DNA of 64,000 nucleotides from a virus. The notes below the pieces were generated by a model, which was given only the letters and a program-made list of their open reading frames with translations, did no database searches and had not been told where the DNA came from. Within the stretch, counting starts at the first letter, position 1; each line of letters opens with the position of its first letter. Shown piece by piece: positions 2-40,516 of this stretch. The stretch covers positions 1 to 64,000 of IMG/VR virus record IMGVR_UViG_3300036886_000243; one strand, written 5' to 3'. The position numbers and the translations under genes are program-made.

Positions 2-3000
2 GATGCATCCTTTGATTTGTATGGAAGCTATGGTTTCAAAGTTGGTTATTTCTCTAGCGCAGATTTATGTTATGGCACTAAAACCTTCACTTCACAAACT
101 GAAGTCTTTATGAGGGCTTATCTATATATTAGTCCTAATTATAAAGTAGCTGCTGCTGGAAACAGTATCAAAGTTTTAAGCTTCTTATCAACTGGTGGTG
201 GCCAGGAATTAGTTTCTTTATATTTGACTGCTAATGGTGCTACTAACATCATTAATAATTGGACCACATTTATAGATACAGTCGGCACACAAAACTTTGC
301 TACTAATTTCACAACAGGTAATTTTCACAAAATAGAATTACACTTTAGAGCTGGCACTGGTGCTGATGGTGGTGGCCAAATATGGGTAGACGATACGCTC
401 TTGGCTAGTAACTTAACTTTAAACTTAAGCGCATTAGCTTGTAACACTCTATTAGTTGGACCTAGTACTGCTGGTATAAATTCTATACAAGGTTCTTTCT
501 TGTACTTTGATGACATAAAAGTTGATAACTTCCCAGCAATTACTCCAGCAAGAATTCCCGACTATCATGATCTATATACCAAAGTATTTATCAACTCACC
601 AGAGACTAGAGGATATCAAGATTTCGGTTTAAATAAAGCTGATCCTAATATACAATTAACTATAACTGGTACATATGGTTTTTATATAACAGTAAATGGT
701 TATAGCTCTCCTGTCCTTGTCACCATTAACATAGTCGCTACCGATACTCTTAATACAATTGCATCAAAAATTAACCAGCAATTTGCTACACTAGCTTATA
801 ACGGAAGACCGTTTATATTTGCCTACGCTAGAGTTTTCTTAAGCCCTATAACAACTGGTTGGGACTTAAGGATATATAGTCAATCTAGTGGAGATTATTC
901 TACTATACTATTATGCGTATACGGCATTTGAAACTTAAACTTAGTTTTAGGTGGAACTGGATATTTAACAGCAGTTCCAGGCGTTAGCGATTGGAATATA
1001 ATAAATGATATCACATTAACTGATCATCAATTTATAGTAGCAAACGGTGTTACAACTCAGCCGCCTCCAGGATTAGATGTTGGTACGGTAGCCTATGAAT
1101 TGTATTATGCTATGTTAGCAGCTGGCACTAATTTCCCAGCAACAGCCCCACAAAACAACTTCACTATAGGGTTAAATAACTCTATAGGTTTTGATCACAG
1201 CAATCAACTCTATGTATACTCTAATTTAGCGACACAAGGCTTTCAAGCGTTGAATATGAGCGTACCTGATCCTGCTCTAAATTCTCTGCTAGCGCCATTA
1301 ACTACATATTATTTCAAATTAGTTGTAGACGGTGGACCTCTTACTGAGTATGCTATAATAACGACTACTGATACATCTTATCAGGGCGTAGTGAATTCAA
1401 TAAATAATGTACTGACTGGAATAGTCACTGTAAGCTTTAGTATAACAAACGACATCATATTCACATCTGATTCCTATGGACCTTTCTCGAGCGTATCTAC
1501 AGCTGACGGCACTACAGGTACTAGTTTATTTGGTTTTGCTTATCCTGCTGCTGGTTTTACACCTTCAGCCCTACATCTACCACCAGTCTTTGGAACTGGT
1601 ACTATAATTTCAATTAGGCCGTGTCCAATAAAAACGTTTGCAATAATAAAAGATTCAATTAAAGAAAGAGCCACATATAGTTATAATGATACTATAGTTT
1701 ATGTTACGCCCACAGCGCAATCTAGTAAAAGAGATTTTATAGATACCTATACAGCATTTTTAACTAGTACTAGTGCAAATAGATGGTCAACACAAAATAG
1801 TAGAACTATCGCCTTAGATTTAAGCGCTCATCCGAATTGGTTTGCTGGGTCGACAATAACTAAGTTATGTCCGCTTACTATTGGTCTTAATAACTACCTG
1901 TTAGTTGGTAACTCTAAAGGTCAAGTATTTTACTTTTTAGCTAATGTTACTTTGTATAACGAAGATATGATCATATCTTCTTCGACACCACCAGACCCTG
2001 CAACTTTTGTATACTTCACTAGCGCAAATTTAAGACAAGCTGGATTACCAACGCAAGGTGACCCTGAATTTATAAGCAACTTCTTTACTTATGTAGATTC
2101 TGTAAATAATAAGACTTATTTATTTATTTTAACTCAGAGCTACATATATTGGTCAGATATAACTGCTGGTCTAACGCCCAGTCAGTCTTTTAACATAGTA
2201 AATACTAGTAGTTCGTTAATAGTACCGAACGTAACTGACGTCGTATTCAAGGAAATAAGATCAGCAATAAGTTGGACTGCTACTGTTAATCCAACTACCC
2301 CATCAACAAATAATTATGTAATTTTTGTTGGTAAGTCTAACATAAGCACATGGAATCGCGCCCCTATTGTCTATGGACTGTATAATTATAATGGAGCGCA
2401 TCCTGAACAATCATTTATTTGGAATTCAGAAAGTGTATATGAGAAATCACAAATAGACGATATAAGATCTATATCTAAATTTAACAACTGGCAAGATCCA
2501 CAACAAACATATCAATTATTTATAACTAACAACGTTAACGGTCCAGAACTCTGGACTGGTAATTCTCAAAACGGTACGTTTGAGGTTGGTGGTGTAGGTG
2601 GCGACAACAGATTTGTAAGGTTTAGTTGGATAAATGCTAATCATGAAAATGGTACTGATCCTTTTGGAATAAATACTAGTTTGAGCTATTTAAGCTTTGC
2701 GACTGTTTATGATAACAAGTTATTCGTCGGCGGATTACGCTATGACATTAACACTATTGGTGGATTATATAGTTACGGGCTCAACCAGCTTCAAAATTAT
2801 TTTACAGTTGATTCAACTTTATCATCAGCCTTTGTTGATACCTCTGTAAGTAATTCTGCTTTATATGTTGTATTACATGATGGAACTACGGGCAACGCCG
2901 ATCCAGCTATTGCTAAAATAAATCAAGAGACCGATGCTGGTAGAGCTGTAATAGTAAGCGCTATAGATCTTGAAACAGTTTCTGAGTGGCCATCGCAATC

Positions 3001-6000
3001 TGCTTTTCAAGTAGTATTGCTTGGATTCACAGTCGGTGGTATAGTTTATGACGGCACTTACAATGTAGTATTTAATGGAAATTTCTCTGACATAAATGCG
3101 ATTGTGACGGCAATGAATGGTGGTGATGTAGCAGCTGCAGGATTTAAAACAGCTATAAATACAGCTACTAGTACTGTAAGAGATTTGACGCCAGCAATAG
3201 AAGCTGTATTATTGACTGATATAGTATTGTCTGGTTCTGTCTATATAAACAAATTTAAAATTGCAATTCAAAGTAAGACTTCTGATCCAGCCGATCACAG
3301 CGGGTTCACTAGTCCAACACAACCAACTCAATCTAATTGTACTATAACCATTAATAACCCAACCACTGGAACTACTATAGTTGGCGTAGGCCCCAACACT
3401 CTAGAAATATTGGCTGGCACTACAGCACACGCTAATTTACAATTAATAGATTGGAATAACGCGAAACTTAGACAAGTAAAAAGAGTCTCGACTGATTCAT
3501 TCGAATTAAATTTTGGAACGCTAAGCTATATTAACATTACTCCATATATACCCGGCGGATATTCTATACTAACTGGTAGCTTTAGATTGAAGGCAGATCC
3601 AAACGACGAGATTGGTTATTCACAAGGCGACGGCCTAATTCTAACTAGCGGCACTACGCTAACATCGTTATCCCCAATATATAATGGAATTTACACCTTC
3701 AAAGTTGAGTTTGATGCAACAAACATTGCGGGAACTGCCCAGGTTACTAGAATTGTATGCGCAGCTGACTCTAACGGATCTTTGAGTGGAACCTACTTCT
3801 TAATTAACACGCCAACTAAATATTATTATGTTTGGTACAATGTTACTGGTTTAGCCAGCCCATCTATAGACCCACAAATATTTGGATGTTCACCAATAAT
3901 GGTAACAATCCCAAGAGGTACCAGTGCAGCAACTGTAGGTACTACGACTGCTTCTGCCCTAACTACAACCTCAGACTTTATAGCCTCTTCAACTTTAGGC
4001 ATAATCACAGCAACAAACACATCTAATGGTCGCCTAGTACCAGCATCTGATGGAGATACTGGTTTTGGGATTACTACTACAAACATGGGATCTGGTGGAA
4101 ATGTTATCAACCAAATTGTAGTAAATTCGGCCAGTGTCACAACAATAAGTAGTTTAATAATTTCTATAAATTCACAAATATCTGGTGGTGTAGCAACTTT
4201 AAGCCCTATTGGTAATACAACTGACTATTGCGACATAGTAATAACTTCTCTCACTATTGGTAATAATTCTAGTGTAAGAATTTTCGCAGATACTTTGGGC
4301 AACTATCTATTTACTAAATATGGATTGGATATAATACCTAATCAGCCAGTTCAAGGAAGTACGGGTCTTAATACGGCTGGTTATCAGACACTAGGATTTA
4401 CTTGGACTAATTCTGACTATTTCTTAGAATATAGTTATCCCAACAGCCCAGGTACTGGCCAAGTAAGAATCTATATTCCGAATGGTTCTACTAGATTGAA
4501 CACTGGTTCTACTATTTATTTAGATTTTTGGGCTTGGACTACACTAACTAAGATTGCGGCCAAAGTCGGTAACCCGCCACAGAATACTATTCCAGTAGCT
4601 GGTCAGTGGACTTATAAGCTAGAATCTAAAGAAATTGTTTTGGCAGTAGCCCCAAGTACAGTAGCACCACAAGACATGATTTTTGTAGATCTAGAAGTTT
4701 ACAAAGTTTTAGCAGAATTAGATTTAGGTAATACGCCGCCAGTTGATCAGACTGCTATATCTGATACTTTCTATGGTACTCAACCATTCAATCTGACTAA
4801 CGGGGATGTAGCCTTAAACAGACCATTAGCAAGAGTAGAAGCTTTAGATTATGGTATTTTCTTGTTGAGTACTAATACTTCCAACTTAGACAACACTGGT
4901 TCTAATTCACCTATAGTAATAAACTATTCTTTCTTCTTGCCTAGAATAGATCTATTAATGGCTCAAAAAATGCCGGATCAATATGGTAATAGAGTTATAG
5001 AAGTGAAGGGATTATCAGATTCAATAATGCCATGGGCCGAAGTACCACAAACAACTTTAGACTCTACTTCGATGTTATACGGAGCCTTTGTTAGCTCTCA
5101 AGATTATAATAACAATAACATAATAAGTCTGCCATGGTATAGTAACGCTGATGTAGATAAAGACAAAGTTTATTTCACTGGTGAATCTGTACATTATTTT
5201 AGCTCCGATCAAAACTTTATATCAGCTAGTGGTCTTAAGTATATATCTAGAAATATAAACTTAGATAAATTCATTCTTAATAATGATTACGAATTAGTAG
5301 TAGTCACAGATCCAGTCGGAATCAATAGTTTCCGAAATAGAGACGCCAAATATAATAATCTAGATCAGTCTAAATGTATATTCGTTAATAATGATACTGG
5401 TAGTGATGCTTCTGATGGTCAAACTAAAAATTCGCCCGTTAAAACATTACAGAACGCAATAAATCTAGCCACCAACACTAGACCTTACGTCATAATAACA
5501 AGACCAGAGAATTTAAACCAAACTGTTTATACTTCAATTACTATTAATAAGGGTTTTGAGATTTTCATAATAGCTGAATATATTGCTGCTATCCCCCAAA
5601 TAACAATCAGCAGTCCTTGTTATTTACAGGGATTAAACGTTGGAGGCACGGCGGCGCCAGGCTTGGGTATATTAATATTGAATGGCCATGATTTAACAGC
5701 TAAATATTGCAATATTCAAACAATAACTACAGTAGGATATCCATCTGGATCTGCAACGTACAGTAGTATTAATGTAGCTGTTTACAATTCTATTATAGAA
5801 GTAAATGGTGTTGTAGTACTAAATAATCCTATAATTCCATTGAATATAACTGGAGCTACTAATGTATTATTTCAGAATGTATTTATTAGAAGCAGCGCAC
5901 AGATACTTAACTTCAGTCCGGCGACTTATAGTATAACAGCGACTAATACTTTTACATTTAACAACATAACTAACGGTCAAGGTCATGCTGGTACTACTAT

Positions 6001-9000
6001 AACAACTGCTGGTGGAGTATCTCAGAGCATTAATATAACAATTAATAATTCTATATTACCAGCTAACGACGCAGCTGGAATCACAAACTTTGCAACTAAC
6101 GCTGTGGTGACTATTAATAGATCGTTAACTTATAGATTGGTCAATGTTGATTCGGGATCTATTGTAACTGATAAATCTCAAATTGTAAGCGTGGGCGATA
6201 TTGGAATAAATCCTATTACCGGTTCATCAAACTCAATAGCGAGAGGTTTCGCAACTGATTCTTTCGCCATAAACTATATTGATAGACACATAGACGCAGG
6301 AGCTTTCTTAGAAAACAGAATAGAATTAGGAATAGCTAATCAGGCAGCTCCTTCTCTAACCGAATCGTTTATGCACCTACATGAACAAAGATTACAATAC
6401 AGATATAGTATGTTGGGAGATAAGTTTAGCTTCTGGATCCGATTTCAATTGATGACAGACTATACCGTTCCATTTGTATTATTCGATACACGTTATGATG
6501 GCGACTTTAATGTTGATTCAGGATTGTGGAATTTAAACGGTAATGAATTTATACAGATTGTGTATGACAACAACACCTATGCTTTACCATATCTTGATGA
6601 TTCTAAATATTGTTTCAAGGTCGTATTTAGTAATAACTTTGCAACTTACGTAGCAGTCATTGGCCCATATTTTACAGCCTCAGACAATCAGGAATTTGGC
6701 GGACCGAGTGGTCCCAATGGATTCTGGCACGAACTAGGTGTCGTCTATTCTTTAAAGGATATCTATGACAATAAGTATGATTCAATTACAGGCACAGGCG
6801 TTTCTAGCTTAACTCCTCAAACAGTAGGTAGTCCTATTTCTAAGAGTGTAGTAGTTGATAGTAATAGAAAACAAGGTGTCGTTATTACTTTATGGGATAG
6901 TAAAGTAGACAAGATCTACGCACCTTCGTTACCGTTATTTGAAGATCTGAATGGTAATCCAGTTGCTAACAGTAACTGGTACCCCGGCGTATCTATAAGT
7001 AATTTCTTTAATATCGGTGGTGGTTGGTCAGCGGAGTGGGATGGAAGTATATGGTCCACGTGGATACCTTCTAACGGACATCTTTCAATTGATAGATTCT
7101 TAGTTAGTCACGAGGTAATTCCAGCCAATGTATTAGTCAGCATCGGACCAAGAGAAGTTATAATCTTAGATGAAAACGATTGGCGAACGGGTAGATGGGA
7201 TGACAAAGATACAGACATAATAATACATTGTCAAAATCCAAATCCATTCTCAGAAAACGGACTTTATCCAGAACCAGGATATCAAGTTTCATTCCGCCCA
7301 TATGAAGGGTTTGAAGGCAACGCAATAGCTATAGAAGAAGCAAGTCCAAACCTTATACAATATGGTCGCTTCCAGATGGGTCAATGGTTTGATAGAACTG
7401 CTGCAAGTCAATGGGCTACAGGACCTGTAACTGTTTATGAAGAAGTTCAAGCAACTAGTCCTGGTGTAGCTATAGCAGACCTTAGAGGTGGAAATTTAGT
7501 AGTCGATTTCTTGAACACTTCTACATTAGTTATAGCACATTCAACTACAGTATTAATTGGACCTACTTTACCCTTCTCGCCTCCAACAGTTTCAATGGAT
7601 ATTACCGGAAATAGTATAGTAGTGGGCTACATTTATTCTGATAGTTTCTTCTATTTTAATACAGTCAACACTAATACTTATTTATTGGGAACAACAGCGC
7701 CGGGATATCAACTTGCTAATACAGCTGGTGCTACCTATATATCAGTTACAGCTGGTGCTACTAGTTCACAAGCAATATTTACTTACGAACATACTGGTTT
7801 AGGTTACATAGTAATAATAGATGTAACTACTAATACTGTAATCGCTGGCCCAACTGCTTTTAGTATCGCTCCAATAACTTACAGTAACGCTAACACTTCT
7901 GTAGACAAAGATGGTAACCCAACTTACGTTATAGTTTATGTAGATGCAGCCACTAAGTTCTTGAACTATGTAATGTATAACTCAACCCTAACAGCCACTG
8001 TTTACCCAATAGCCACTTTAGTTCAAACAGAAAATCCAACTCATCTAGAATGCAATAGCTTTGGGGCTTTTGGAAATACAGCTATAAAGTGGATTAATAA
8101 TACCGACATGGTGGTTGGTGGAAATTGTGAAAGTATTACAGCTCCATTCTTGTTTGGACAAGTTCCAGCAGCAACTGTAAATGCAACGTGGGCCCAAAAC
8201 GCTTTAGTACCGCATACCGGTGGTTTTTCATTCGAGCTTACATTAACTCCCGCAGCAGCTGACGCCCAAGCTTTTTTGGGACCATCCTCTTCGGTAGACA
8301 TGAGCGGTTTTATTGCAGGGCACACATATAAATTTGCAGCATGGATTTACATTCCAGCCCAAGCTGTAGTAAATATTGCAAACTTCAGTCTCACATTTGG
8401 TTACTACAATGGATCTTGGACGTATGTTCCAGCTACACCCACGGCAATATTCAATGCATGGCAATATATTACTGCCTCAATTACGATACCTGGTGGTGCT
8501 ACGGGTGCTCAAGTCTTTGTTCAAATAACTTCGGCTGAAGCTATTGGTACGCATTGTTATTTTGATGATATTCAAATAATAGATGCAGCAAATCCGACTA
8601 CTCTAAAAACTGCATTGATTAACGACACTGGATTATTAGCAGTTTCACCATTTCCAGTATATGCTAACGCAGACACTGGATTACAAGCGGATGATGTATT
8701 GCTAACATCAAATAACAACATGTTATTTGCTGTAAAAGATTTTACTACACAACACATAAACTTTGCTATATACAATAGTGCACTAGACTTAGTACCCAAT
8801 TCGTCTAATATAAGACCTTACAATATGAGCGACGTTGACGGAAAAATATTATTATCTAATGTGTATAACTCTAACGACTATGTAATTATTACAGACAACA
8901 TTGCTGGTAACGCTAATATCATAACATTAGCTACAGATGTACCTACATTATGGTATAAAGATTTTACAGGAGTATTTCAGACTTTCATTGCGGATGTCGA

Positions 9001-12000
9001 ATCAACTAATAGCTTATTTGGTGAAGCGGCCTTTATCGATTTTGCCCACGAGCCAATGGCTGTAGAATCAGATGTATTTGTAGCTGACGCTGAAACAGGT
9101 AACATATCGCAATGGACGACGAACGTACAATCTGGTGGTAGTATAACTGCTGAAAATGCTATAATAATTCATGGTAATTATAGCTACCAATTTCAATACA
9201 ATGGATCAGGCAATGCAGTATATCTAAGTAAGAATGCTGGCCTTAACCCTGGTGGCAATCCAACGTTGTTTGGTAGATTCTACATTCAGTTGGATAGTTT
9301 TTTCACTTTAACGGGCGTCAACCCACAACTTGTTATAGCTCAATATGGGCCATCAGGTAATCCACTAGTTCTAAGTATAGTCTATAATTCAGTTGACAGA
9401 AAATATAAGTTATCAGGTTCTGCTGGCGCTTTCGGTAGTTTCCTTACTGCCAATAGTGTCATCGATTATAGTACTTCACACTATATTGATATAGAGTGGG
9501 TAAATAATGTTTCAATTGGCGGTTGGTCGGTTTGGGTAGATGGTACATTAGTTGCTAGCGATTTAGCTCAAGACACATCTTCGCTTGGCAATCCTTCAAT
9601 TTTCATAATAGGAAACACAGTTGCTCAAGCTACACCACCAGCTACATTAGCTAAGATCTATTTTGACGACGCCAGATCAGGCTACACTGGACCAATAGGC
9701 GCTTATACAGCAGGATTGGGACAAGGTCAGATATGGCAGCCAGTAACTGTAGTTAACTCAGGACAATATTTCATATCTGGATTTTTTGCAGTTACCTCAG
9801 GCAATTTTATACTTACATTAGAAAGTACTAGCACAGGCGCTGGTGGGGCACTAAGTAGCCCAATTCAATATGAGTTTAGTAATTTAAAAATCGAGGGAGA
9901 TATAGCTAACGCTATACACCTGACTAAAGGAACAGACACGGTAAATAATTTTACTTTGAACCAAGTAAATACTAATAGAATTGCTAGATTTACAATTGGA
10001 TTCACTGTCCCGAATGCCGGCTATATAAACGTTAGACTACAAACTCCCTATATCTCTGGCTCAGAAATAGACACTCTATTTGTGGACAATCTTAAATTAG
10101 AAAATAACGCTCATGCTACGAGTATAATAACTTCGGGCACAGGTAATGCTGTTTATGATATTCACTTGAAAGAGAAGGGTAATGCCTACTTTAGAATAAC
10201 CCCAGAGTTTTTCACTACTACAGCAACTAACCATACTATATTTTCTGGATACACCACTAACAGTTTGAATGTCGTATATACAACGCATGAATTATATTTT
10301 AGCGGAGCAACTAAACAATTTATTTTCTATATTCAAAATCTTGACTTGACAACAGTTCAAGTAGCGTCAGCAATATACGGAGATGCTATATCAATACCAG
10401 CCTTCACAGACTTAAATTCTCCGCATACAATTGTAGTGAACTGGGATTTATTCCACGGCTATTTGGAAATGTATATTGACACTATTTATTATTCTACTAC
10501 ATTCCCAGTTCAATCTAGAATAGCAACATTTAAGGAAGCTGATTTTACAGTTATTGGTAATGTATTTGATCTAAGCCGACATGCTGGTTGTCTATTTGAT
10601 TTAATACGAGTTGGTGAAACTCCACTATCTACAGACGAAGTTCTGGATCTGACTTTAAAGGCGAATCCTTTCGTTCATCCATCTGATACATACATAGGCT
10701 CAGTAGGAGTAACTGGTCTATCTTTCTTTGGATTAACCAGCGGTGATTTATATGATCAAACTATATATTCAAGACAAGTTGGTAACGGTTGGGATCTAGT
10801 TATTGATACTGGTAACAATTTTCTTAACAACTTAGTAGTTCAAGTTAACGGATCTCCGTTAGCAACTTTCACAGCCCAGGGCGTCGTAATAAATGGTAGC
10901 CTAGAGGTTACAAACTTAATAGCACAAACTACGACGACACTATCAACTACTGGAGATAACATAACTCTAAGATTTGGATTTACAGGAATCCCACAACCAT
11001 CTAACAATGGTTATTTCCAAGTAGATAGAGGTAATTTAGCTGACTCTCAAATTATTTGGCTAGAGGCTATAAAGGCTTGGGCGTTTAACGATGGAACTAA
11101 TACCAATATCGCTATTGATGGAACCTCTATAGGAACTTGGAACGCTGCCGCTCCTAATTGGAGCATAGATGTAAACGCAAGTGGCAATTTAACGTTCTTG
11201 AGTGGAACTACCACTAACTCTAACACCACGGCCAGAACTGGTGGCGTAGAAATGTTAAGAGTGAACTCAGCTGAAGTTGCATTTAACAACTCTAATCTCC
11301 AAACTATAAACTTTAGAATGTCTGGCGGTTCCAGAGATCATATGTTCTTCCTAAATACCAATTTAGGAAACTTAACTGTGGGTAGAAGCGCTGGATTGAT
11401 TCCAACTTTTACACCAAGTTACACACCTATAATGGCTGTAGATACTTTATTATCTGTGGTAAACGTCAACTCCAATAACTATGGATCTATAATGTTTGCT
11501 GAAAATGCAGGAACAGTTGGTGGTCATATAGGTTGGGGTAATTTTACAAGCTCGCCAACTTATTGGGAAATTGTAACTAGAACTGGTCAACTTAGAGTTT
11601 GGGGTAGTGACCTTGTAATGGGTAACACCGACGGATCTCGAGGAATAACATCTACAGGCTTAGGCCTAAGCTTTTTCGAGGATCCTATAAATGCTAGATT
11701 GGCATTTACTTCAAACGCACAAACACAAACTACCGGAGTTTCTTTAGCTGGCGTATATTGCTGGGGTAGTTTTACAGCCTACAAGGTATTTAACAATGTT
11801 TGGAACGATTACGCAGAAGCTTTCGATTTTGATAAACAAATAGAAAAAGATCCTGAACCAGGATTTGTTTACGAGCAAACGGAAAAAGGTCTGATCAAGT
11901 CTACTAAGCGAGCTAGTAAAGCTGCAATAGGTATTTACTCAGACACTTATGGACAACTTATGGGATCAGAAGGAAAACTATACGATGCTGAACATTTAGA

Positions 12001-12211
12001 CGGATCCAAGATCCCAATAGGCTTGATGGGAAAAGTTAAAGTATGGATCAAAGAAAAACTTGAAATCGGCGACTCGCTAGTTTCTGCACCTAATGGTTTT
12101 GCCACTAAAGCTAATGAATATGAAAGAACTTTCAGTGACTTAATACTTGGTAAAGTTCTCGAGACCTCTAATGATAATTCTGAAAAAAGAGTTTGGGTCT
12201 TAGTGAAATAA
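2..12211 (+). CDS. Giant tail fibre/tailspike-like virion protein (5' end upstream of the window; one in-frame TGA at 929-931), with LamG/ConA-like, beta-helix and CBM-like domains and a C-terminal Peptidase_G2-like intramolecular chaperone
   Basis: ORFs 17..931 and 1100..12211 are in the same frame, which is open from nt 2 and between 932 and 1099. T/S/G/N-rich. Beta-helix cap motif IFVNNDTGSDASDGQTKNSPVKTLQNAI (~5380-5465). C-terminal WNDYAE...IPIGLMGKVKV...IGDSLVS...ILGKVLE. Confidence 0.8.
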
Positions 12212-12250: not shown

Positions 12251-15064
12251 ATGACAAACTTTACGCAACTTTTAAAAAAAGTAATGCTATTGAGTGATCT
12301 CAATCAAGCTCAAACTGCTATAAATAACGAGAGAGCTAGGCGTACCGCTATAAATGGCAGTACTATACCGGCATGGTCGTTTTTACCAGTTAGTCGATAT
12401 GATTACGCTTCTGGTAATTTAATTACCAACGGCAATGGCGAAACAGTTTCACCTGCTCCTGCTATTTTTGGGAAGACTGGTGCAGCAGTAAATTCAACTT
12501 TTACTCAAAGCTCAACACACGTTCACTTAGGCTCTAACGCCTTCAACTTAGCTTACACGTCTGGTCTTACTCAATTTTATTGGGACTTTGCATCGCCTGA
12601 AAGTTTCACCAACTTGGGAGGCTTAGTACCAAATACTACTTATACACTTACTGCTTGGGTTTATGTGCCTTCGTCAATAATTTCATTATCAAACGTTACG
12701 CTTGCCATTTATTATAGCACAGATGGTGTTAGTTGGACAAACTTTGCCCAATCTAATTCACCAACTGCTTACAATGATTATCAGCGCTTAACTTTAATTT
12801 TTACTTTGCCACCAAGCACTACTGGAACTATTTTAAAACTACTCGTTAATGAAGTCGGGGCCACTAAACAACTTTGGGTTGATGATATATATCTTCGATC
12901 TAATACTCCAGCTGTAGTAGCTGATTTAAGAAATTCTATAAACAACATGATAAACTATAGCTGGACACAATCGGCTGTTGAATATGGTTATGAAACAGCC
13001 CTAGGTCAAAGCGAAATACTTTGGAAAATTAACAGACTAGAAGAGAACGCTGAAACTTGTAATTCTTCTTGTATTGGATTCTGTCAAGGTTGTTCAACAC
13101 AATGTGGAACTGCATGTGCTACTGGTTGTGGTGCGGCTTGTGCTACTGGTTGCGGTGGTAGTTGTGCAATTGGCTGTGGAACTGCTTGTGCAAGCGGTTG
13201 CGGGGCAGCATGTCAAATTACTTGTGGTGGAACTTGTAATGAAAGCTGTAGCAGCTGTACTGGTAGTTGTGCTACTGGTTGTTCAGGTACTTGTTTCCAT
13301 GGCGCTACAGGTGCTGGTTTATATACTTCGTGTAATTGTGGTACTAGCTGTAGTAGTACTTGTGGCTCTTCCTGTTCTGGATGTTATACGACATGTACGT
13401 CGAGTTGCGGAAGTGCTTGCGTAGGTGGTTGTGGTACCTCTTGTCAAAGTGGTTGTGGTACTGGATGCGCTGGAGGTTGTGGAACTGCATGTACTAATGG
13501 TTGTGGAACTGCATGTCAGAGCGGCTGTGGAACTTCTTGTCAAGCTGGCTGCGGAACCTGCGCATTACAATGTTATAATGCATGTACAGGAACTTGTGGT
13601 GGATTATGCGTTGTTACTTGTGGATCTAACTGCACAGCTATCGCATCATATGCAACTAGTTTAAGCCGATTTATTACATCGCCTTATTATTCTATTCTTC
13701 CAGGTACTATAGTAGAATCACTCTATGATGATCAACAAGTTGTGGGAACTACCGATGTTACTGCTTCGGTAGTTTTTGGATCTTACGTTGTAGTGGGATC
13801 TTCTAGTGGACGTATTGCTTCGTTTGATACGGTCCATAATTATTGGAAGTGGTATACTGGTTATTCAAACGGAACTTCAAATGGGCCGTTTAATGTTGGA
13901 ACAGCTGTAAACAATCAAGCCGTAATAAAGTTACTAGTCTTAGGCACTAAACTTATAGTAGTAACACAGAATTATGTTGCTTCTTATGACGGCACTAATT
14001 GGAAAAATTATGACGGGACTGGCACCGGAACTGGACCATTCGATAATAACACAGCAACGGGCGGATATGGTAACTCAGATGCTGTCGTATGGACTACTAA
14101 ATTAATCATCATTGGACTTACTACAACATTTAATGGTACAAATTTCCTTGCACATAATAGATTATCTTCTTTTGACGGCACGAATTGGAAATATTATAAT
14201 GGAACTGGGACTGGAACTGGACCATTTGCAATAGATGTAAAATCAGATAACACAATTGGAAATCTTTGGGGAGTTTCAGGTTGGTCTTTTAGTTACAACG
14301 TCAAATTAACAACCTACAACACTTATCTTATTGTGTTTGGCGGATCGTTAATTACAGAAGGTCCAGGTACACCATTTACCCACTCTAACGCTGGCTGTGC
14401 TTCATATGATGGGAACTGGAAATATTTTGATGGAACTGGAACTGGAACTGGGCCATTCTTTAATAGCGCTCTAGCCAACGGCGGCCCATTGCCACACGTT
14501 AATGGCACGCTCACGACTATAGCCACAATTGGTGCTTGCGGAAGTTATAACGGGCAACTGATAGTGACTGATTTTGCTTATGGTAATACTAGAATAGCTT
14601 CCTGGGATGGTAGCCATTGGAAAAATGCTGATGGTACAGGGACAGGGACTGGTGTCTTCTATACTGGTACAGCTATTTTAGGAGCTAGCGCTCATATATT
14701 AAAATTATTAGATTACGCACCCGGCGCAACGCATTTCTTAGTAATAACCTCTGATATAGCTAGTGCTTTAGCTTCTTGGAATGGAGCTAGCTGGAGAAAC
14801 TCTGATGGTACAGGTACTGGCACAGGACCATCAAACTCTGGCACTGCAGTAAATTCTCAAATAATTCAAACACTATCTACACTAATATACAGTGGTAAAA
14901 ATTATTTGGTACTTGGAGCTAGTGGTGGAAATATTGCATCTTATGACGGGACTACATGGCTAAATTACAATACTGTGCCTACAATAATTACAACTGGAAC
15001 CTATTTTACAAATAATCCACCAGCTGAGTATTTTGGAGTGACTGGTTATTATACGTCAATTTAA
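12251..15064 (+). CDS. Fibre-like protein with CBM-like domain, Cys-rich CXXX-repeat tract and 7-repeat (probable beta-propeller) C-terminus; putative radical SAM modification target
   Basis: CBM-like NLITNGNGE...YTLTAWVYVP...LWVDDIYL; 48 Cys in 192 aa (13058-13633); seven AS(Y/F/W)DG..WK..DGTGTGTGPF-type repeats. Confidence 0.85.
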   Translation: MTNFTQLLKKVMLLSDLNQAQTAINNERARRTAINGSTIPAWSFLPVSRYDYASGNLITNGNGETVSPAPAIFGKTGAAVNSTFTQSSTHVHLGSNAFNLAYTSGLTQFYWDFASPESFTNLGGLVPNTTYTLTAWVYVPSSIISLSNVTLAIYYSTDGVSWTNFAQSNSPTAYNDYQRLTLIFTLPPSTTGTILKLLVNEVGATKQLWVDDIYLRSNTPAVVADLRNSINNMINYSWTQSAVEYGYETALGQSEILWKINRLEENAETCNSSCIGFCQGCSTQCGTACATGCGAACATGCGGSCAIGCGTACASGCGAACQITCGGTCNESCSSCTGSCATGCSGTCFHGATGAGLYTSCNCGTSCSSTCGSSCSGCYTTCTSSCGSACVGGCGTSCQSGCGTGCAGGCGTACTNGCGTACQSGCGTSCQAGCGTCALQCYNACTGTCGGLCVVTCGSNCTAIASYATSLSRFITSPYYSILPGTIVESLYDDQQVVGTTDVTASVVFGSYVVVGSSSGRIASFDTVHNYWKWYTGYSNGTSNGPFNVGTAVNNQAVIKLLVLGTKLIVVTQNYVASYDGTNWKNYDGTGTGTGPFDNNTATGGYGNSDAVVWTTKLIIIGLTTTFNGTNFLAHNRLSSFDGTNWKYYNGTGTGTGPFAIDVKSDNTIGNLWGVSGWSFSYNVKLTTYNTYLIVFGGSLITEGPGTPFTHSNAGCASYDGNWKYFDGTGTGTGPFFNSALANGGPLPHVNGTLTTIATIGACGSYNGQLIVTDFAYGNTRIASWDGSHWKNADGTGTGTGVFYTGTAILGASAHILKLLDYAPGATHFLVITSDIASALASWNGASWRNSDGTGTGTGPSNSGTAVNSQIIQTLSTLIYSGKNYLVLGASGGNIASYDGTTWLNYNTVPTIITTGTYFTNNPPAEYFGVTGYYTSI
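13058..13633 (+). repeat. CxxxC (Cys every 4th residue) coding repeat, two blocks joined by FHGATGAGLYTS
   Basis: CGTACATGCGAACATGCGGSC...; 12/24-nt periodic tgtggaactgcatgt-like DNA units. Confidence 0.95.
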
Positions 15065-15076: not shown

Positions 15077-16168
15077 ATGCCTGTTTTCATAAATCAAAAT
15101 TATACCGGGATAACATTCGCAGATTATCCAGTTTCAAATGTTGGGGTTTCAGCTTTTAATCTACAACACGACTGGTTTACTCAACAAGATTTATCAATCT
15201 ATACTGGAGCGGGTCATACTGGAACACAGCTTCTATTAGGAGTACACTATATTTTGGTAACACAAGCCACTGACTTGTCTGCTAACTGTACAGCTGTTCG
15301 AGGTATAACTATTAACGCTTACTATCAGATTCAAATAATAAATGTTACTTATCAAACAGGCAATCTATTTATTAGCGGTCGATATGTAGCTGACTCGCTT
15401 GACGCCTCAAAAGTTGAAGTATCGCCTACTATAGCAATATCAGGTAACTACACAATAATTCAAGACAAAATAAGATCTGTCCACGCTACTACTGGTGGTG
15501 GTACTGTAACTTTGACTTTACCTACAGGAACTATCAATGATTATCGAAGAGTGCGTTATGTCAAAGCAGACGCTGGCATTGGCACTGCCGTATTGGCTGT
15601 TGATATTAGTGATACAATAGGTCCTAGTGGAACAAGTTTCACATTATATTCTCAGGGTGATTATATTGATGTAGAGTATGAAGCACTAACTCATATTTGG
15701 TGGCCAATTGGTAATCGTGTATTACCAACAGCAGACATTTATTTGGGCAAACCGATTTATTTTACAACAGCCAACACAAGTAGATCGTTAGTTTCGACAA
15801 CACCTCCAATCGTAGCAAACTTTTCCACAGCAATACAAGCCACTGGTTTGGTTGGTATTCCTGCTAGCGCTAAAGCTATTATAGTAACTATTGATATAGA
15901 AGGGACAGTAGATAACACACCTTGTGAATTGTTGTTAGGCTTCTCAGATAACAATACAACTACCCCTTCTATTTCAACTAGCCATGCAAAGGCTCGTCTA
16001 TATGCTTCTGTAGGTGGGACTTTTAGTGGAACATGGAAAAATGATCCTGTCCAAGTTATCATACCATTAAATTCACTTGGGCAATTCTATACTTATACAA
16101 TAACTTTGAGTAACATCACAGGATCTACATATAACGTAATTGCTAACGGATATTACACCGGTCTTTAA
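15077..16168 (+). CDS. Putative tail fibre/virion protein
   Basis: T/G/I-rich, TVTLTLPT...VKADAG..AV fibre-type segment, SD aaggag, lies in the tail module. Confidence 0.6.
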   Translation: MPVFINQNYTGITFADYPVSNVGVSAFNLQHDWFTQQDLSIYTGAGHTGTQLLLGVHYILVTQATDLSANCTAVRGITINAYYQIQIINVTYQTGNLFISGRYVADSLDASKVEVSPTIAISGNYTIIQDKIRSVHATTGGGTVTLTLPTGTINDYRRVRYVKADAGIGTAVLAVDISDTIGPSGTSFTLYSQGDYIDVEYEALTHIWWPIGNRVLPTADIYLGKPIYFTTANTSRSLVSTTPPIVANFSTAIQATGLVGIPASAKAIIVTIDIEGTVDNTPCELLLGFSDNNTTTPSISTSHAKARLYASVGGTFSGTWKNDPVQVIIPLNSLGQFYTYTITLSNITGSTYNVIANGYYTGL

Positions 16169-16182: not shown

Positions 16183-17409
16183 GTGATAAGTGAAAAGCTA
16201 GATTCTCAAATAGCCAAAGGCGCTCCGCAATACAAAGCGGGAGAAGCCAAAGATATAACTTTCTGTGTCACACAAGCTTGTAACTTAAGATGTCGCTACT
16301 GCTATATTGTAGGAGCTGATAATCATAAGAGTCTTACTAAAGATCAAGCCAAGAAAAACATAGATTTTATTTTTGATAATCCCGAACTCTTTTATGAGAA
16401 CTCTGTTATTTGGAATTTTATAGGCGGAGAGCCTCTCTTAGAAATTGAGCTGATTGACTACATGTGCGACTATTTAAAAATAAGAATGTATGAAAAACGA
16501 TCAGATGATTGGTTAAGCGATCACATGTTTTGTTTTTCAACTAATGGAACATTGTATCATAAGCCGGAAGTTCGAAAATTCATAAATAAGAACAAGGATC
16601 ATCTCTCAATTGGTTTTTCAATAGACGGCGTAAAAGAACTTCATGATAAATACAGAGTTTATCAAGATGGTAGAGGTAGCTTTGAAGATGTTTTAAAAAA
16701 TGTACCTTTATATGTAGCTGATTTTCAACATCACCCAACTACTAAAGCTACTTTATCACATGACTCTTTACCTTATATTTTTGAGTCAATCAAATTTCTT
16801 TCGACTTTAGGTTTAGACATTTACATGAATACCGTCTTTGAAGATATTTGGCAAGATGGTGATGATGATATATACTATGACCAGCTTTTACAAGCAGCTG
16901 ATTGGCTTATTGAAACAGGAAAGTGGCGTACACAGGTTGTGAGTTTGTTTGACTCAGCATTAATTGGACCACGCAATAATAATAACAAAAATTGGTGTGG
17001 TTCTGGTAAGATGTTGCACATAGACATAAACGGTAAACTTTTTCCATGTACTCGACTCGCTCCATATTCTATGACTTATAGAAAAGAAGGATTTTCTTTT
17101 GGAGATATAGAGCGGGGATATGACCAAAATAAACTAGATGCTTTTCTCAATTTGACTAAGCCTGATCAGAGCGATATGAGTTGTTTAAGTTGCGACATAG
17201 ATGATGGATGTGCTTGGTGTACAGGCTGGAACTATGATAGATACGGCTCAATATTCAAAAGAGCCACCTTCATATGTAAAATGCATAAGGCCAGAATGAA
17301 AGCCAATAGATACTACTTTAATAGACTAGAAAGCTTGATAAAAAGTGAAAGTTTTGAAAACAGTCTAAAAGAGAATGCTCCCATCTGGGAAGCCTTAGCA
17401 AAGGAATAA
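16183..17409 (+). CDS. Radical SAM/SPASM peptide maturase, CXXX-repeat target family (TIGR04115-like)
   Basis: CNLRCRYC SAM motif, FIGGEPLLE, STNG, SIDG; SPASM NWCGSG..LFPCTRL..CLSCDIDDGCAWCTGWNYD..RATFICKMHKAR. Confidence 0.93.
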   Translation: MISEKLDSQIAKGAPQYKAGEAKDITFCVTQACNLRCRYCYIVGADNHKSLTKDQAKKNIDFIFDNPELFYENSVIWNFIGGEPLLEIELIDYMCDYLKIRMYEKRSDDWLSDHMFCFSTNGTLYHKPEVRKFINKNKDHLSIGFSIDGVKELHDKYRVYQDGRGSFEDVLKNVPLYVADFQHHPTTKATLSHDSLPYIFESIKFLSTLGLDIYMNTVFEDIWQDGDDDIYYDQLLQAADWLIETGKWRTQVVSLFDSALIGPRNNNNKNWCGSGKMLHIDINGKLFPCTRLAPYSMTYRKEGFSFGDIERGYDQNKLDAFLNLTKPDQSDMSCLSCDIDDGCAWCTGWNYDRYGSIFKRATFICKMHKARMKANRYYFNRLESLIKSESFENSLKENAPIWEALAKE

Positions 17410-17410: not shown

Positions 17411-18115
17411 ATGGTTCTTTATTATCTAAGTGGTAAAATTCATAGCGACTGTCATTATGAAGACTTAGAGCTTGATGATATTGACATAGCCTTAGCCACA
17501 AAATTAGCCGACGAGAAACAAATATATTTGCAAGAATTTAGTGCATCGGAGTTTTCAGAGGACGGTTTAGATTTTCCAATTAATGAAAGTACTTGCAATA
17601 AAAGAATTTTAGCACCTGACATGAACATCTATTATTGTCCTGGATTTGTAGAATTGAAAGAACCTATTTGCTCTCTGAGAGAGTTTAATGAAGAAGATTT
17701 CGATAAAAAGCTTGAGGACTTCTATTTCAAAAAACTTTATATGTGTACAAGTCCCAACGTAGAAGACGTGAGAAGATTTTGTCCGGTGAAAACTAAATGT
17801 GATAAAAAAATGTGCTATTATCTAAATCACAAACTGACTGGTGATAATAGATTTCCTTTTAGCGATTTCTGCATAGTTAAGGAAAACAGGTACACTAAAA
17901 AAATGGACACGAATAATATAGATATTTTACCAATACTCTTAAATTGTTTAATAAAACAAAATGAGGCTATTCACTCTTTGGGAACTGCTCATCCAAATCC
18001 AGTAGTCAAAAATAGACTGCTCAATTTAGTTGAAGAAGTCAATGAAAATATCTCGACTGTTATTGACAGAATGGAACAAGCTGTAAAGCAAGATGGAGAA
18101 GAGGATGTCCCTTGA
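17411..18115 (+). CDS. CXXX-repeat peptide maturase partner (TIGR04119-like), shortened SPASM-type protein
   Basis: N-terminal SDCHYE; CNKRILAPDMNIYYCPGF; KCDKKMCYYLNHKLTGDNRFPFSDFC; starts 1 nt after the radical SAM stop. Confidence 0.72.
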   Translation: MVLYYLSGKIHSDCHYEDLELDDIDIALATKLADEKQIYLQEFSASEFSEDGLDFPINESTCNKRILAPDMNIYYCPGFVELKEPICSLREFNEEDFDKKLEDFYFKKLYMCTSPNVEDVRRFCPVKTKCDKKMCYYLNHKLTGDNRFPFSDFCIVKENRYTKKMDTNNIDILPILLNCLIKQNEAIHSLGTAHPNPVVKNRLLNLVEEVNENISTVIDRMEQAVKQDGEEDVP

Positions 18116-18294: not shown

Positions 18295-18576
18295 ATGCGA
18301 AAAATAGTTGGTCATGTCACTCAAGCGGAGAAAGAAGAAATTCAAAATATCTTCAATCGAAAACGAGGTCTAGAAGAGTTATTCAATTCTCTCGTATCAA
18401 CTAAGGCTGACGTCAAAAATAATCCAACTTATGATAGGCTGCTAAAAGATTATACTGACACTACTACTCAGTTTCACGATTGGTGGAGCATGACATCTCA
18501 GAGATATCTTTGGGAAGGCATAGACAGTAAATCTTGGTTGATTGATTTTAATACTAACGAAATTTACTTAGAGTAG
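18295..18576 (+). CDS. CXXX-repeat peptide modification system accessory protein (TIGR04116-like)
   Basis: MRKIVGHVTQAEKEEIQNIFNRKRGLEEL...YDRLLKD...FHDWWSMTSQRYLWE...WLIDFNTNEIYL matches my recollection of the family; SD aaggag. Confidence 0.85.
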   Translation: MRKIVGHVTQAEKEEIQNIFNRKRGLEELFNSLVSTKADVKNNPTYDRLLKDYTDTTTQFHDWWSMTSQRYLWEGIDSKSWLIDFNTNEIYLE

Positions 18577-18589: not shown

Positions 18590-18618
18590 AGCCGGTACTC
18601 TTTTGGTACCGGCTTTTT
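18590..18618 (+). terminator. Intrinsic terminator closing the tail/CXXX operon
   Basis: agccggtac-tcttttg-gtaccggct followed by tttt. Confidence 0.85.
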
Positions 18619-23189: not shown

Positions 23190-23246
23190 GTTTGTAAGAT
23201 GCCTCCTTATGTTGATATCGCATATATTATTCATAAGAGGAAAGTT

Positions 23247-24154
23247 ATGGATTTTGATTATAGTAAAATAGTAGGATGGACTGAAGAGCAAATAAGGTCA
23301 GGCGTCTATCATGATTATTCTAACACTAAAATTGTTAAAGACACAAGAAAACAAGATCGGAGATATAAAATATTTCCCGGTGGTAAAATTAAATACACTT
23401 ACTGGGTTTGGGAAAAATGTTACGGAACTCAAGCCCCATTTAATTTGATAATTCATCACAAAGACGAAAATCCTTTAAACGACAACATTGAAAACCTCAC
23501 CCTTATGACTAGAGGCGAACATTCTAAGTGGCACAGCCAAAGATTAGTTGGCAAAACTTACGACGAAATACATGGAGCTGAGAAAGCTGAAGTTATAAGA
23601 CAAAGAATAATTGACAATACAAAAGAAGCATTAGCATCTCCCGAAATGCGACAAAAAATTTCTGAGACTACTAAAGAAGGAATGATAGGTGTCAAGATCT
23701 GGTGTGAAGGTGGTCATCTTCCTGAAGAAGTAAAAGCTAAGATTAGTGAGAGTCGCTCTGGTAAATGTATGGGAGCGGACAATCCTAGTTTCGGTAAACC
23801 TTGTCCTGAGAAAACTAAAGAAGCAGTCAGTAAAGCTAATACTGGTAGAGCGCCATGGAATAAGGGCAAGAAGATTTCTCTAGAGCGCCCAGATATAATT
23901 GAAAATCAGAAAAAAAGTCATGCTGATATGAAAGGCGAAAATAATCCGTTCTATGGTCAAAAGCAAAGCAAAGCGAAGAATTGAAAAAGCATCTAGCTGC
24001 AATTAATACTAAACATCAAATTGGCGACGTCTGGAGAGACGAAAAAGGAATTCTCAAGTATAAAAATGAAGCCGGTAGGAATCGCCGAGTTCCTGACATA
24101 TTTAATCGTATACCAGAGTTCATAAAAGACAAAGTAAAAGAAGCAAGACAATGA
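23247..24154 (+). CDS. HNH-NUMOD3 homing endonuclease, frameshifted by a 5-nt duplication near 23961-23975
   Basis: IHHKDENPLNDNIENLTLMTRGEHSKWH; NUMOD3-like HLPEEVKAKISES, GENNPFYG; the alternative frame KQSEELKKHL.. ends in ATGA at the next gene. Confidence 0.75.
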
Positions 24155-37874: not shown

Positions 37875-39815
37875 ATGGCCCTAAATACTTTCACAGGTGT
37901 AGGTAACTGGGAGAACGCGTCTAACTGGAGCTTGGGTGTACCAGCTGCCGGGCAATCAATTAAGATAAGCGGTAGTTGTACTATAAATGAATTTGAAACA
38001 CTAGGCTATACAGACCTAACTGTAGATACAGGTGCTTTATTATTATCCTCTAACACAGGTACTACTCTTTTAGAAGTTAATGGCTCTGTAGTTTTAAATG
38101 GACAAATTGGCAAGATAAACGACCAACAACTCCAGTTAGTAATTGCAAATACTTCCAGTGCTACATTAAGTAGCACAAACAACATTCTCAATAACATTTC
38201 TCTAACAGCCGCCGGAACGACATTAAACTTGGCCAGTAATATTGTTGTTGCTAGCTTGGTGTTGATGAATGGGATTTTAGACGTTACTCCCGCTAATTAT
38301 CAAATTACTACATCATATTTTGAAATATATCCAGGTACTTCCTTTAACCCCCAAAATGGTACAATAGTATTTGTAGGCAACGCTAGTCTAATAGTTAGTA
38401 CTTCTTCAAATTTATCGTTTTGGAATTTGACCGTAGCTCCGCTGAGTAATCTAACAATATATGGTGATGATACGCCGCTAATAGGCAATACGCTAAATCA
38501 CGCTGAAGAAATTATTTATAAAAGTGTTTTCGCAAGTTGGGCCAATCAGATTTGGTATCAGAATTTCAATCGCGCTCATTTAACTCTTACTTCAAATTTT
38601 TTAGATAGAAGAACATATGACAATACTTTTACAACGCAATTAATTATAGATAGCTCTTTCATTAACAGCAACATACAAATAGATGGCAACAACATATTTA
38701 GCCGATCTGACCACGCTTTAACAGGCTCGTTTGCCAATACATTTACAACAGATAGTACCGACACGTTTAATAGAACAAACCTGATAATAACTGAGTCTTA
38801 TTTAGATTTAGTAGACAAGAGAACATATACAAATACTTTCAATACGACTAGCCTTAATATTGCAACTTCTTACAACGAGAGCGGTACAACTGATAATACA
38901 AATAATTTCGACGCAGCTAATCTTAGTATAGCTGCATCATTTACAGACAGCAACACGACCAACAGCGTAGATGTTATCAATGGTAATAGTTTCATAGCTG
39001 TATCATTTACAGACAGCAACACGACCAGCAGCATGGACGTTATTAACGCGTCTTTAGTGGCTAGTGCGTCTTTTGTCAATTCTTATACAGTCGTTTATAC
39101 CAACATATTTAATACAGCGCAAGGTGTATTAACTGGATCTTATTTGGATCGAAGAACATACACTAATAGTTTTGATACCGCATTACTTTCCCTAGCTGGA
39201 TCTTTTGTCAATAGCAACATAACAAGGAGCAACAATAATTTCTTGGCTAGTTCAAACTTAGTAGCGATTGATTCGTTTGCTGTAGTCAACATAACAAGTT
39301 CAGCCGACATATTTAACAGAGCTAATTTGATTGTGACTGACTCTTTTACAAATAACAACTCTAGAACATACACTAATACTTTCAATCATACTAATTTAGT
39401 TGTAGCGTCTAACACTTTCCATATTGATGAGCCTGTGAGAAACTATACTAATACCTTCAATCCTGCCACTTTAACAATTACAGGAACTCTTTTAGACATT
39501 TATCATAGAGTTAGTGTATATGTTTTCATAAGTGGTAGTTTCACAGATAGCAACGCAACTAACAACATAGACGCATTCAATACAACTGATTTAGTAATTG
39601 GTAGTTCTTTCGTAAAAGTATATACTTCTAATCCGACGTCTTCAACTAATACTAATACCTTTAACGCAGTGGATCTAACAATGACTGGTGTATTCACAAA
39701 TGGCACCAAGATAAACTGGACTGATACTTTTGACCCATCCAATACTGTAGTTAGTAGTTCGTTTGTTAACAGCTACTCAACAGATTGGTTAGACGACTTT
39801 GACAGCTTATCATGA
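37875..39815 (+). CDS. Fibre-like protein: autotransporter-like beta-helix N-terminus plus N/T-rich RTYTNTFN repeats
   Basis: GNWENASNWSLGVP; repeated RTYTNTFNxxxLxxTxSF. Confidence 0.65.
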   Translation: MALNTFTGVGNWENASNWSLGVPAAGQSIKISGSCTINEFETLGYTDLTVDTGALLLSSNTGTTLLEVNGSVVLNGQIGKINDQQLQLVIANTSSATLSSTNNILNNISLTAAGTTLNLASNIVVASLVLMNGILDVTPANYQITTSYFEIYPGTSFNPQNGTIVFVGNASLIVSTSSNLSFWNLTVAPLSNLTIYGDDTPLIGNTLNHAEEIIYKSVFASWANQIWYQNFNRAHLTLTSNFLDRRTYDNTFTTQLIIDSSFINSNIQIDGNNIFSRSDHALTGSFANTFTTDSTDTFNRTNLIITESYLDLVDKRTYTNTFNTTSLNIATSYNESGTTDNTNNFDAANLSIAASFTDSNTTNSVDVINGNSFIAVSFTDSNTTSSMDVINASLVASASFVNSYTVVYTNIFNTAQGVLTGSYLDRRTYTNSFDTALLSLAGSFVNSNITRSNNNFLASSNLVAIDSFAVVNITSSADIFNRANLIVTDSFTNNNSRTYTNTFNHTNLVVASNTFHIDEPVRNYTNTFNPATLTITGTLLDIYHRVSVYVFISGSFTDSNATNNIDAFNTTDLVIGSSFVKVYTSNPTSSTNTNTFNAVDLTMTGVFTNGTKINWTDTFDPSNTVVSSSFVNSYSTDWLDDFDSLS

Positions 39816-40168
39816 AATTAAGTAGAGTTCTTAAAGAAGCATTAGAACAAGAAATTCGAAAAGGCCATATTGCATTAGCGCCCTTTCCATATTCAGACAG
39901 AGATGAATCTAAAGTTCGACCCTGTTTAGTGTTAGCCAAGAAAGGTGATGATATTCTGTGTGCTTATATGAGCAGTAAGCTGGAGCGCGAAGGTGTTCTA
40001 ATAAAGTCGGTAGATTTGAGCTGGAGTGAATTGAAAGATCCAACTGCATTGATTCGACCAGACAAACTTGCTACTATAGACGTAAAACGAATAGAAAAAA
40101 TAGTAGGCCACCTAATAGAGCCTAAACGAAAAGAAGTGGTCAACCGCATAAACAATCTAATACAATGA
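39812..40168 (+). CDS. mazF: PemK/MazF-family endoribonuclease toxin (orphan) with N-terminal extension
   Basis: KGHIALAPFPYSDRDESKVRPCLVL..AYMSS..IRPDKLATID..IVGHL. Confidence 0.85.
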   Translation: MKLSRVLKEALEQEIRKGHIALAPFPYSDRDESKVRPCLVLAKKGDDILCAYMSSKLEREGVLIKSVDLSWSELKDPTALIRPDKLATIDVKRIEKIVGHLIEPKRKEVVNRINNLIQ

Positions 40169-40506: not shown

Positions 40507-40516
40507 AATAATAGGC

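Follow-up and report, generated by a model that had tools for sequence, protein, structure and literature searches.

The question raised by this locus is why a phage gene lying next to a fibre or spike gene encodes a long cysteine (Cys) ladder between two folded domains, and what a radical S-adenosylmethionine (SAM) enzyme encoded just downstream does to it. The window, 64 kb in full, is the first part of the 91.5-kb IMG/VR virus record IMGVR_UViG_3300036886_000243, for which CheckV gives a completeness of 45%. The protein concerned, labelled P0001, is the 937-amino-acid (aa) product of the open reading frame (ORF) at 12251..15064 on the + strand, as taken from the ORF listing and its translation. 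P0001 is a true mosaic composed of a predicted N-terminal helix, a CBM_4_9-like β-sandwich, two predicted helices, the Cys ladder and a predicted seven-bladed β-propeller. The reading preferred here, with a probability of roughly 0.5, is that P0001 is a mosaic appendage of the adsorption apparatus in which the ladder is enzymatically stapled to serve as a spacer, and it is most likely a fibre-tip or side-fibre adhesin. The CXXX-repeat modification system has been catalogued already, and the novelty lies in its predicted substrate, a fibre protein of full size with three modules.

The ladder occupies residues 270-461 (13058..13633, + strand), where direct counts give 48 Cys and 41 CXXX units. 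The Cys tract reported in the first-pass annotation is therefore present, and 41 of the 47 spacings between Cys in its 192 residues are exactly 4. It is composed principally of Cys (48), Gly (43), Thr (28), Ser (25) and Ala (20), with a single Glu and no Asp. Among the 41 units, the first variable position is Gly in 16, the second is Thr in 13 and Ser in 9, and the third is Gly in 12; the DNA has an imperfect 12- and 24-nucleotide (nt) periodicity. The ladder matches the Cys tracts of protein P0003 in BLASTP (E 6e-32), for which the precomputed Pfam assignment is PF27846. P0001 itself has no Pfam target match, and the Pfam copy used possibly lacks PF27846, as relatives with that precomputed assignment were also unmatched. 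The phage family phrog_6085 aligns with residues 224-336 (profile positions 6-119 of 129, E 2.2e-5), most of the score being judged to come from the Cys part. The regular recurrence of Cys, four residues apart over a long stretch, with a maturase gene 1.1 kb downstream, places P0001 among the CXXX-repeat targets.

The maturase gene (16183..17409, + strand) predicts a 408-aa radical SAM/SPASM protein that belongs to the CXXX-repeat target family TIGR04115, scoring 430.1 bits against a cut-off of 350, with model positions 1-359 aligned to residues 22-378. The CX3CX2C motif (C33, C37, C40) and the Cys of the C-terminal SPASM region (C272, C289, C334, C337, C343, C346, C365) are invariant in 23 aligned relatives. 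The 93-aa product of 18295..18576 (+ strand) belongs to TIGR04116 (79.5 bits, cut-off 50), the CXXX repeat peptide modification system protein, referred to here as the helper. Its nearest clusters in the Atlas carry the same name, and its profile found no match in the PDB below E 0.15. The CXXX-repeat peptide modification system TIGR04115/TIGR04116 was reportedly described by Haft and Basu in 2011. Judged from sequence, the enzyme set is of a bacterial (Bacteroidales/Clostridia) type and closest to the enzymes of anaerobes.

Relatives of the maturase are carried by at least 202 viral contigs. The best 80 of these IMG/VR loci, with 26-45% identity to the maturase, were surveyed, and together with the GenBank phage locus L003 they make up the 81 phage loci referred to below. 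A CXXX-ladder ORF is found near the maturase in 73 of the 80 viral loci, and the helper family, after three profile rounds, in 68 of the 81 phage loci. The viral ladder ORFs encode 40-522 aa with at most 154 residues beyond the ladder, and in the common form a conserved N-domain of ~110 aa precedes a ladder extending as far as the C-terminus. At least 517 maturase relatives are present in bacterial genomes, and the best 80 loci (L101-L180; maturase 39-48% identical) come mostly from gut and rumen Bacteroidales and Clostridia. Ladder ORFs are present in 73 of these 80 (108 ORFs, median 110 aa, maximum 346 aa), as is the helper family in 72. Twin-arginine-like N-termini (..SRREFFKK..) were seen in 79 of the 108 bacterial ladder ORFs, which suggests export of a product that is already modified and folded, as the twin-arginine translocation pathway carries folded proteins. 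No sandwich or propeller was matched in the ORFs of the 80 viral loci, and no sandwich, propeller or chaperone domain in the 80 bacterial loci, so that neither set includes a CXXX target with a sandwich or a propeller.

Other arrangements are also found among the targets. In the cultured Salmonella phage SPN3US, two small ladder ORFs and two radical SAM genes lie beside annotated virion structural and tail genes. The 130-aa SPN3US ladder ORF (L004:5061-5459, NC_027402; phrog_6085 E 7.5e-41) is located between two annotated genes and has no coding sequence in the RefSeq record. Two viral targets, L012:6252-7508 and L062:755-2296, carry an extra domain ahead of the conserved N-domain, and that of L012 opens with a GDSL-type motif resembling an SGNH hydrolase by eye; enzyme-plus-ladder fusions may thus exist. 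A ladder followed by a C-terminal domain also occurs in P0013 (964 aa), where the propeller match is below threshold, and in P0007 (560 aa), where the C-terminal part of ~165 aa has no family match. This layout fits a spacer role for the ladder.

The regular association of maturase and helper with ladder ORFs points to the ladder as the substrate. It also bears on the alternative that P0001 is a virion fibre part with a ladder that is not cross-linked by the enzyme, the Cys binding metal or iron-sulfur clusters or forming disulfides after release, and the radical SAM enzyme acting elsewhere or making another change, for example the Cys oxidation known from anaerobic sulfatase maturases. Cys-rich tracts are generally known to bind metal, the maturase matches the anaerobic sulfatase maturase model (E 4.7e-18), the ladder offers no Asp acceptor, and the literature search gave no chemistry for the maturase family. 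However, maturase and ladder ORF occur together in the same high proportion of viral and bacterial loci, the helper family accompanies them in most, and the best-scoring characterised relative of the maturase is the thioether-forming PapB. An unlinked ladder is accordingly considered unlikely, and the enzymatically stapled ladder is retained.

The second line of evidence concerns the sandwich, which was identified by BLASTP, Pfam, phmmer and Foldseek in residues 55-217 (12413..12901, + strand). It aligns with residues ~2336-2493 (nt ~8105-8578) of the 3703-aa ORF immediately upstream, with 48 of 164 positions identical (29%; BLASTP E 8e-17) and a phmmer score of 49.7 bits (E 1.2e-15). This pairwise alignment bears out the proposal that a domain resembling a carbohydrate-binding module (CBM) is common to P0001 and the giant tail protein. 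The copy in the 3703-aa protein matches Pfam CBM_4_9 at 29.6 bits (residues 2399-2476; gathering cut-off 25.9), and a score of 38 bits was obtained for another copy, that of the metagenomic protein P0025, to which the P0001 sandwich is related at E 1.6e-10 in phmmer. The P0001 copy falls below the cut-off at 23.4 bits (E 8.6e-5), and is therefore named CBM_4_9-like. The AlphaFold 2 (AF2) model, with a predicted local distance difference test (pLDDT) value of 51, gives an 11-stranded sandwich. At that confidence its best Foldseek matches are CBM16, CBM22, CBM4 and CBM11 modules with template modelling scores of 0.5-0.6 by target, and the top matches include the enzymatically active domain of tailspike 4 from phage CBA120.

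The 3703-aa neighbour (1100..12211, + strand), recognised by its CBM_4_9 domain and Peptidase_G2-like end, stops 39 nt before the P0001 ORF. Its last 170 aa (nt 11699-12208) score 24.6 bits on Peptidase_G2, where the cut-off is 25, and 13 of 17 aligned relatives of this end match the family at E up to 0.1 (best 7.4e-7). A profile of the C-terminal domain finds PDB entries 6qz9, 3gqh and 3suc with E between 1.6e-4 and 1.4e-3, and its matches to phi29 gp12 (6qz9, 3gqh) and to the chaperone domain of tailspike Dpo31 have E of 1e-4 to 2e-4. This end, which resembles Peptidase_G2 or intramolecular chaperone domains, marks the 3703-aa protein as a probable fibre or spike, and the earlier name of giant tail protein is fair. 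The shared CBM-like domain ties P0001 to this adjoining fibre or spike protein, and the link to the adsorption apparatus proposed at first pass holds on this basis. Of the 81 phage loci, 40 hold an ORF with this chaperone-type domain at its end; in the five where coordinates were compared, that ORF stops 4-406 nt upstream of the ladder gene.

These observations also weigh on the possibility that P0001 acts off the particle as an unattached adhesin or decoy, produced late and set free at lysis or displayed on the host surface, where it would bind mucus or polysaccharide or block superinfection, with the ladder providing extracellular stability. The closest relatives of the enzymes serve small twin-arginine-like proteins rather than virion parts, and searches with Pfam, PHROG and phmmer recognised no baseplate- or fibre-docking domain at either end of P0001. 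On the other hand, inspection of the P0001 N-terminus found no twin-arginine or other signal-like motif, the gene follows a fibre or spike gene closely and is itself followed by short gaps, and a fibre-type ORF with a chaperone-type end accompanies the ladder gene in about half of the phage loci. Such a role is improbable, and a place in the adsorption apparatus is preferred.

The C-terminal part of P0001 is predicted to be a seven-bladed β-propeller (residues ~496-905; 13736..14965, + strand) from sequence repeats, AF2 and VIA-align. The motif [AS]S[FYW][DN][GT] occurs seven times, at residues 523, 577, 639, 717, 783, 841 and 896. The first-pass annotation had described seven GTGTGTG-type repeats; the seven ASxDG..W repeats stand, but an exact GTGTGTG is found in only 5, the first repeat having GYSNGTSNG and the last none. 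The AF2 model of residues 465-937, built from a 5-row alignment, has seven strand clusters with a mean pLDDT of 73.7 and a predicted template modelling score (pTM) of 0.80. All of the top 50 ranks in Foldseek are β-propellers or propeller-containing proteins, and together with the seven repeats and the pTM this supports the propeller originally proposed. Propeller matches in VIA-align have Z of 23.6-25.4 over ~280 residues and include virginiamycin B lyase (2z2n), RACK1, PLL2, PLL5 and PHL. The alignment to 2z2n has Z 25.1 and a root mean square deviation (rmsd) of 2.6 over 281 residues, and that to the Photorhabdus lectin PLL5 has Z 24.4. We take 2z2n, RACK1 (4aow) and the PLL lectins to be seven-bladed propellers. 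Identity is 6-13% across all structural matches, and a lectin function is suggested by the predicted fold.

The best-conserved positions of the propeller in the 5-row alignment lie in the repeats, as S-DG-NW and G-GTG columns, which by eye are presumably structural or surface features of the blades. Among 1.84 billion representatives the propeller has 53 sequence relatives, all of which lack a Cys tract. In viral contigs the family comprises 16 ORFs (422-2455 aa) on 15 contigs; a ladder is absent from all 16, and no maturase or helper gene lies within 6 kb of any of them. That the propeller is instead an enzyme positioned by ladder and sandwich, for example a lyase or depolymerase with a host surface polymer as its substrate, is very improbable: virginiamycin B lyase is among the best structural matches, phage spikes are generally known to carry depolymerases often and the L012 target seems by eye to bear an N-terminal GDSL-type hydrolase, but no catalytic motif was identified, no Pfam enzyme family is matched, identity to every match is low and the best-conserved positions are read as blade features.

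The remaining parts of P0001 are the N-terminal predicted helix (residues 1-34; 12251..12352, + strand), which includes LSDLNQAQTAINNERARR, and the pre-Cys segment (residues 218-269; 12902..13057, + strand) with two predicted helices, all modelled by AF2 at low confidence. The model of residues 1-275 places helices at 3-34, 220-235 and 248-269, in agreement with the helical N-terminus reported earlier, though its mean pLDDT of 51 is too weak for the packing of the helices to be read. The first-pass annotation had further proposed that the CBM was inserted inside a maturase-recognition leader, between segments containing AINNERARR and DLRNSINNM. In viral CXXX targets the conserved N-domain (~110 aa) has the consensus ..ISAEDFTELKKRVKAEIERRS..YDY..P..EHIQKIT.PLDAI.., and residues 13-53 of P0001 (LLSDLNQAQTAINNERARR...SRYDYA) match it by eye from its start through the YDY motif, with the sandwich following directly. 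Profile tests were not significant. A profile of 40 viral N-domains scores -2.8 bits against full P0001 and 3.8 bits against residues 1-60 alone, and hhalign aligns residues 13-53 only (E 0.069, probability 0.8%). In a join control, in which 54-residue windows were appended in silico to residues 1-55, the true continuation at 216-269 ranked only ~101st of 820. Among the 6226 ORFs of the fetched loci, phmmer matched neither residues 1-60 nor residues 216-272 at E below 0.4, and the viral N-domain profile has no match in the PDB below E 0.17. Given the profile, hhalign and join-control results, a split canonical leader is not claimed. Co-folding of the maturase, the helper and residues 216-300 gave 0.02 and 0.00 where the mark is 0.32, and speaks neither for nor against binding.

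Three viral targets (L007:9230-9967, L011:3515-4789 and L013:9254-10114) have the ladder first and a conserved DF..LK..RR domain after it. A leader position is thus not a constant feature of this domain, which may serve in docking or assembly.

A different history is indicated by P0025, in which the sandwich is followed directly by the propeller, with ~50 residues between them and no Cys tract, and in which the propeller is 68% identical to that of P0001 over 92 aa. As P0025 has the CBM and propeller in the absence of a ladder, a leader-plus-ladder cassette may have been set between them in P0001. Such a history fits the sequences at least as well as insertion of a CBM into a leader, and P0001 looks like a sandwich-propeller adhesin that received a leader-plus-ladder cassette, or the reverse.

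Under the preferred reading of a stapled appendage, the following sequence of events is envisaged. A CBM-propeller adhesin module would have been joined by recombination to a leader-plus-ladder cassette drawn from the CXXX systems of phages and bacteria. Within an anaerobic host, whose cytoplasm is reducing and anoxic, the maturase would install many covalent cross-links in the ladder, with the helper and the helical segments ahead of the ladder as guides; these links are probably Cys-derived thioethers like the products of PapB and other SPASM enzymes. The 192-residue tract of Gly, Thr, Ser, Ala and Cys would thereby become a stapled spacer resistant to proteases and reduction, a stalk-like role suggested by its composition. 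The spacer would keep the distal propeller apart from the proximal CBM-like domain, and sandwich and propeller would both bind host surface glycans or other receptors.

Several points weigh against this reading. The first group concerns the chemistry of the TIGR04115 family. PapB is the best-scoring characterised model for the maturase (186.8 bits, E 5.8e-55), below its cut-off of 340, and the SCIFF model gives 85.6 bits with a cut-off of 425. With no Asp in the ladder, the Cys-Asp link of the PapB type cannot be the product. No paper on the TIGR04115 family, or on CXXX systems in phages or bacteria, came out of the literature search, and passages of PMC10352776, PMC12801897, PMC5332604 and PMC10288494 do not treat the CXXX system. 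The second group concerns P0001 itself. It has no match to the NCBIfam target models at E up to 0.1, its leader segments have no significant relatives, and its N-terminal model is of low confidence. The predicted propeller is only 12-13% identical to the lectins, and enzymes and scaffold proteins match it equally well. The closest bacterial systems modify small proteins, so that a structural role is not the sole use of the family.

The identical P0001 protein is present on 9 contigs, the longest of which is 178,186 bases. Further searches gave no relatives: P0001 had no match by tblastn among 50,697 phage records or in a pattern scan across viral contigs, and a scan with the single maturase had no confirmed relative, though the collections may omit records near that of the window.

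Four genes lie 3′ of the P0001 ORF, encoding a 363-aa protein, the radical SAM/SPASM maturase, a 234-aa protein and the 93-aa helper, with intergenic distances that are short (12 and 14 nt) or nil. The 363-aa ORF (15077..16168, + strand), between the target and maturase genes, has no Pfam, PHROG or NCBIfam match and no relative in the fetched loci. The 234-aa Cys-containing ORF (17411..18115, + strand) likewise has no family match in Pfam, PHROGs or NCBIfam. Its sole signal is a BLASTP match (E 1e-4 over 94 aa) to a 321-aa ORF of L002, which in turn has a weak Pfam SPASM match, and it is possibly a SPASM-like remnant on that sequence evidence. The conserved middle ORF of the phage cassettes (~200 aa) is unrelated to either. 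The gene string is closed by a terminator-like hairpin (18590..18614, + strand), whose 10-bp stem includes 6 G-C pairs and precedes a run of T; it starts 14 nt past the helper gene and is assigned from the consensus match only.

Elsewhere in the window, the region 40001-52000 has a G+C content of 0.42-0.47, compared with 0.33-0.42 across the remainder. HNH and homing endonuclease genes are located at 23199-23984, 42681-43448 and 58465-59418. The 118-aa ORF at 39812-40168 (+ strand) has a Pfam match (E 9.4e-10) to PemK/MazF-like toxins of type II toxin-antitoxin systems, and is overlapped by a 113-aa ORF at 40165-40506. An Hsp70/DnaK-like gene is split over two ORFs at 54930-55241 and 55439-56734 (+ strand), which correspond to positions 1-74 and 206-599 of Pfam HSP70 and are separated by 198 nt, with ~130 positions of the ATPase domain missing or lost. 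The 843-aa protein encoded at 31001-33532 (+ strand) matches Bflower_3, a 6-fold beta-flower domain (37 bits, cut-off 34), and more weakly pentapeptide repeats, and may be another structural or adhesin protein. The 130-aa ORF at 53263-53655 (+ strand) matches a cyclic-phosphate processing receiver domain (cREC_REC, E 2.4e-11).

Comparison with known systems sets P0001 apart in several respects. As in the bacterial CXXX system of NCBIfam, its maturase and helper score above the cut-offs and Cys occurs at each fourth residue. However, the bacterial targets are small (≤346 aa) and have no sandwich, propeller or fibre neighbour, whereas the P0001 ladder sits within a 937-aa protein of a phage tail module. 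With the phage CXXX cassettes (phrog_6085, phrog_1802; SPN3US) the locus shares a ladder ORF and maturase, and a fibre-type ORF as seen in 40 of 81 loci; it differs in the 476 residues past the ladder and the extra sandwich before it, and in an enzyme set of bacterial type, in which the helper gene follows that of the maturase.

PapB forms thioethers from Cys, according to the abstracts of PMC10739248 and PMC12373016. The P0001 maturase resembles those of the PapB/freyrasin, ranthipeptide and sactipeptide systems in having a radical SAM core and a SPASM-type C-terminal region. Unlike the short leader-core peptides of PapB/freyrasin-type systems, the presumed substrate here is a multi-domain protein of 937 aa, and no cleavage or export genes were seen near P0001. 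The self-cleaving, chaperone-like (Peptidase_G2) end recalls phi29 gp12 and Dpo31-type tailspikes, but the match is borderline (24.6 bits against 25; PDB E ~1e-4) and the domain is on the 3703-aa neighbour, not P0001. We know of no ladder protein beside phi29 gp12. The Photorhabdus lectins PLL2, PLL5 and PHL share the predicted propeller fold (Z 23.8-24.4, rmsd 2.7-2.8, 284-288 residues), but at 12-13% identity the fold alone is held in common, and WD40 proteins and the lyase match equally well.

As folded, binding-type domains flank its ladder, P0001 is the clearest case for a spacer role, and residues 218-470, with or without the enzymes, are a defined construct for the chemistry. The ladder also suggests a modular shaft for phage receptor-binding proteins engineered in laboratory strains. 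If the reading is true, the uncharacterised CXXX radical SAM family would gain a large, easily assayed substrate. A wider and more doubtful proposal, offered tentatively, is that phages of anaerobes build whole virion parts by radical SAM chemistry, with a portable leader-plus-ladder cassette introduced by recombination into complete receptor-binding proteins and stitched by the phage enzyme into a covalent shaft that is free of disulfides and serves as a rigid spacer separating two glycan-binding heads. In that case a modification of the type seen in ribosomally synthesised and post-translationally modified peptides would act on a 937-residue structural protein. If the ladder is cross-linked by the phage enzyme, this would be covalent, enzyme-made stapling of a fibre in a reducing cytoplasm, giving stable appendages without disulfides.

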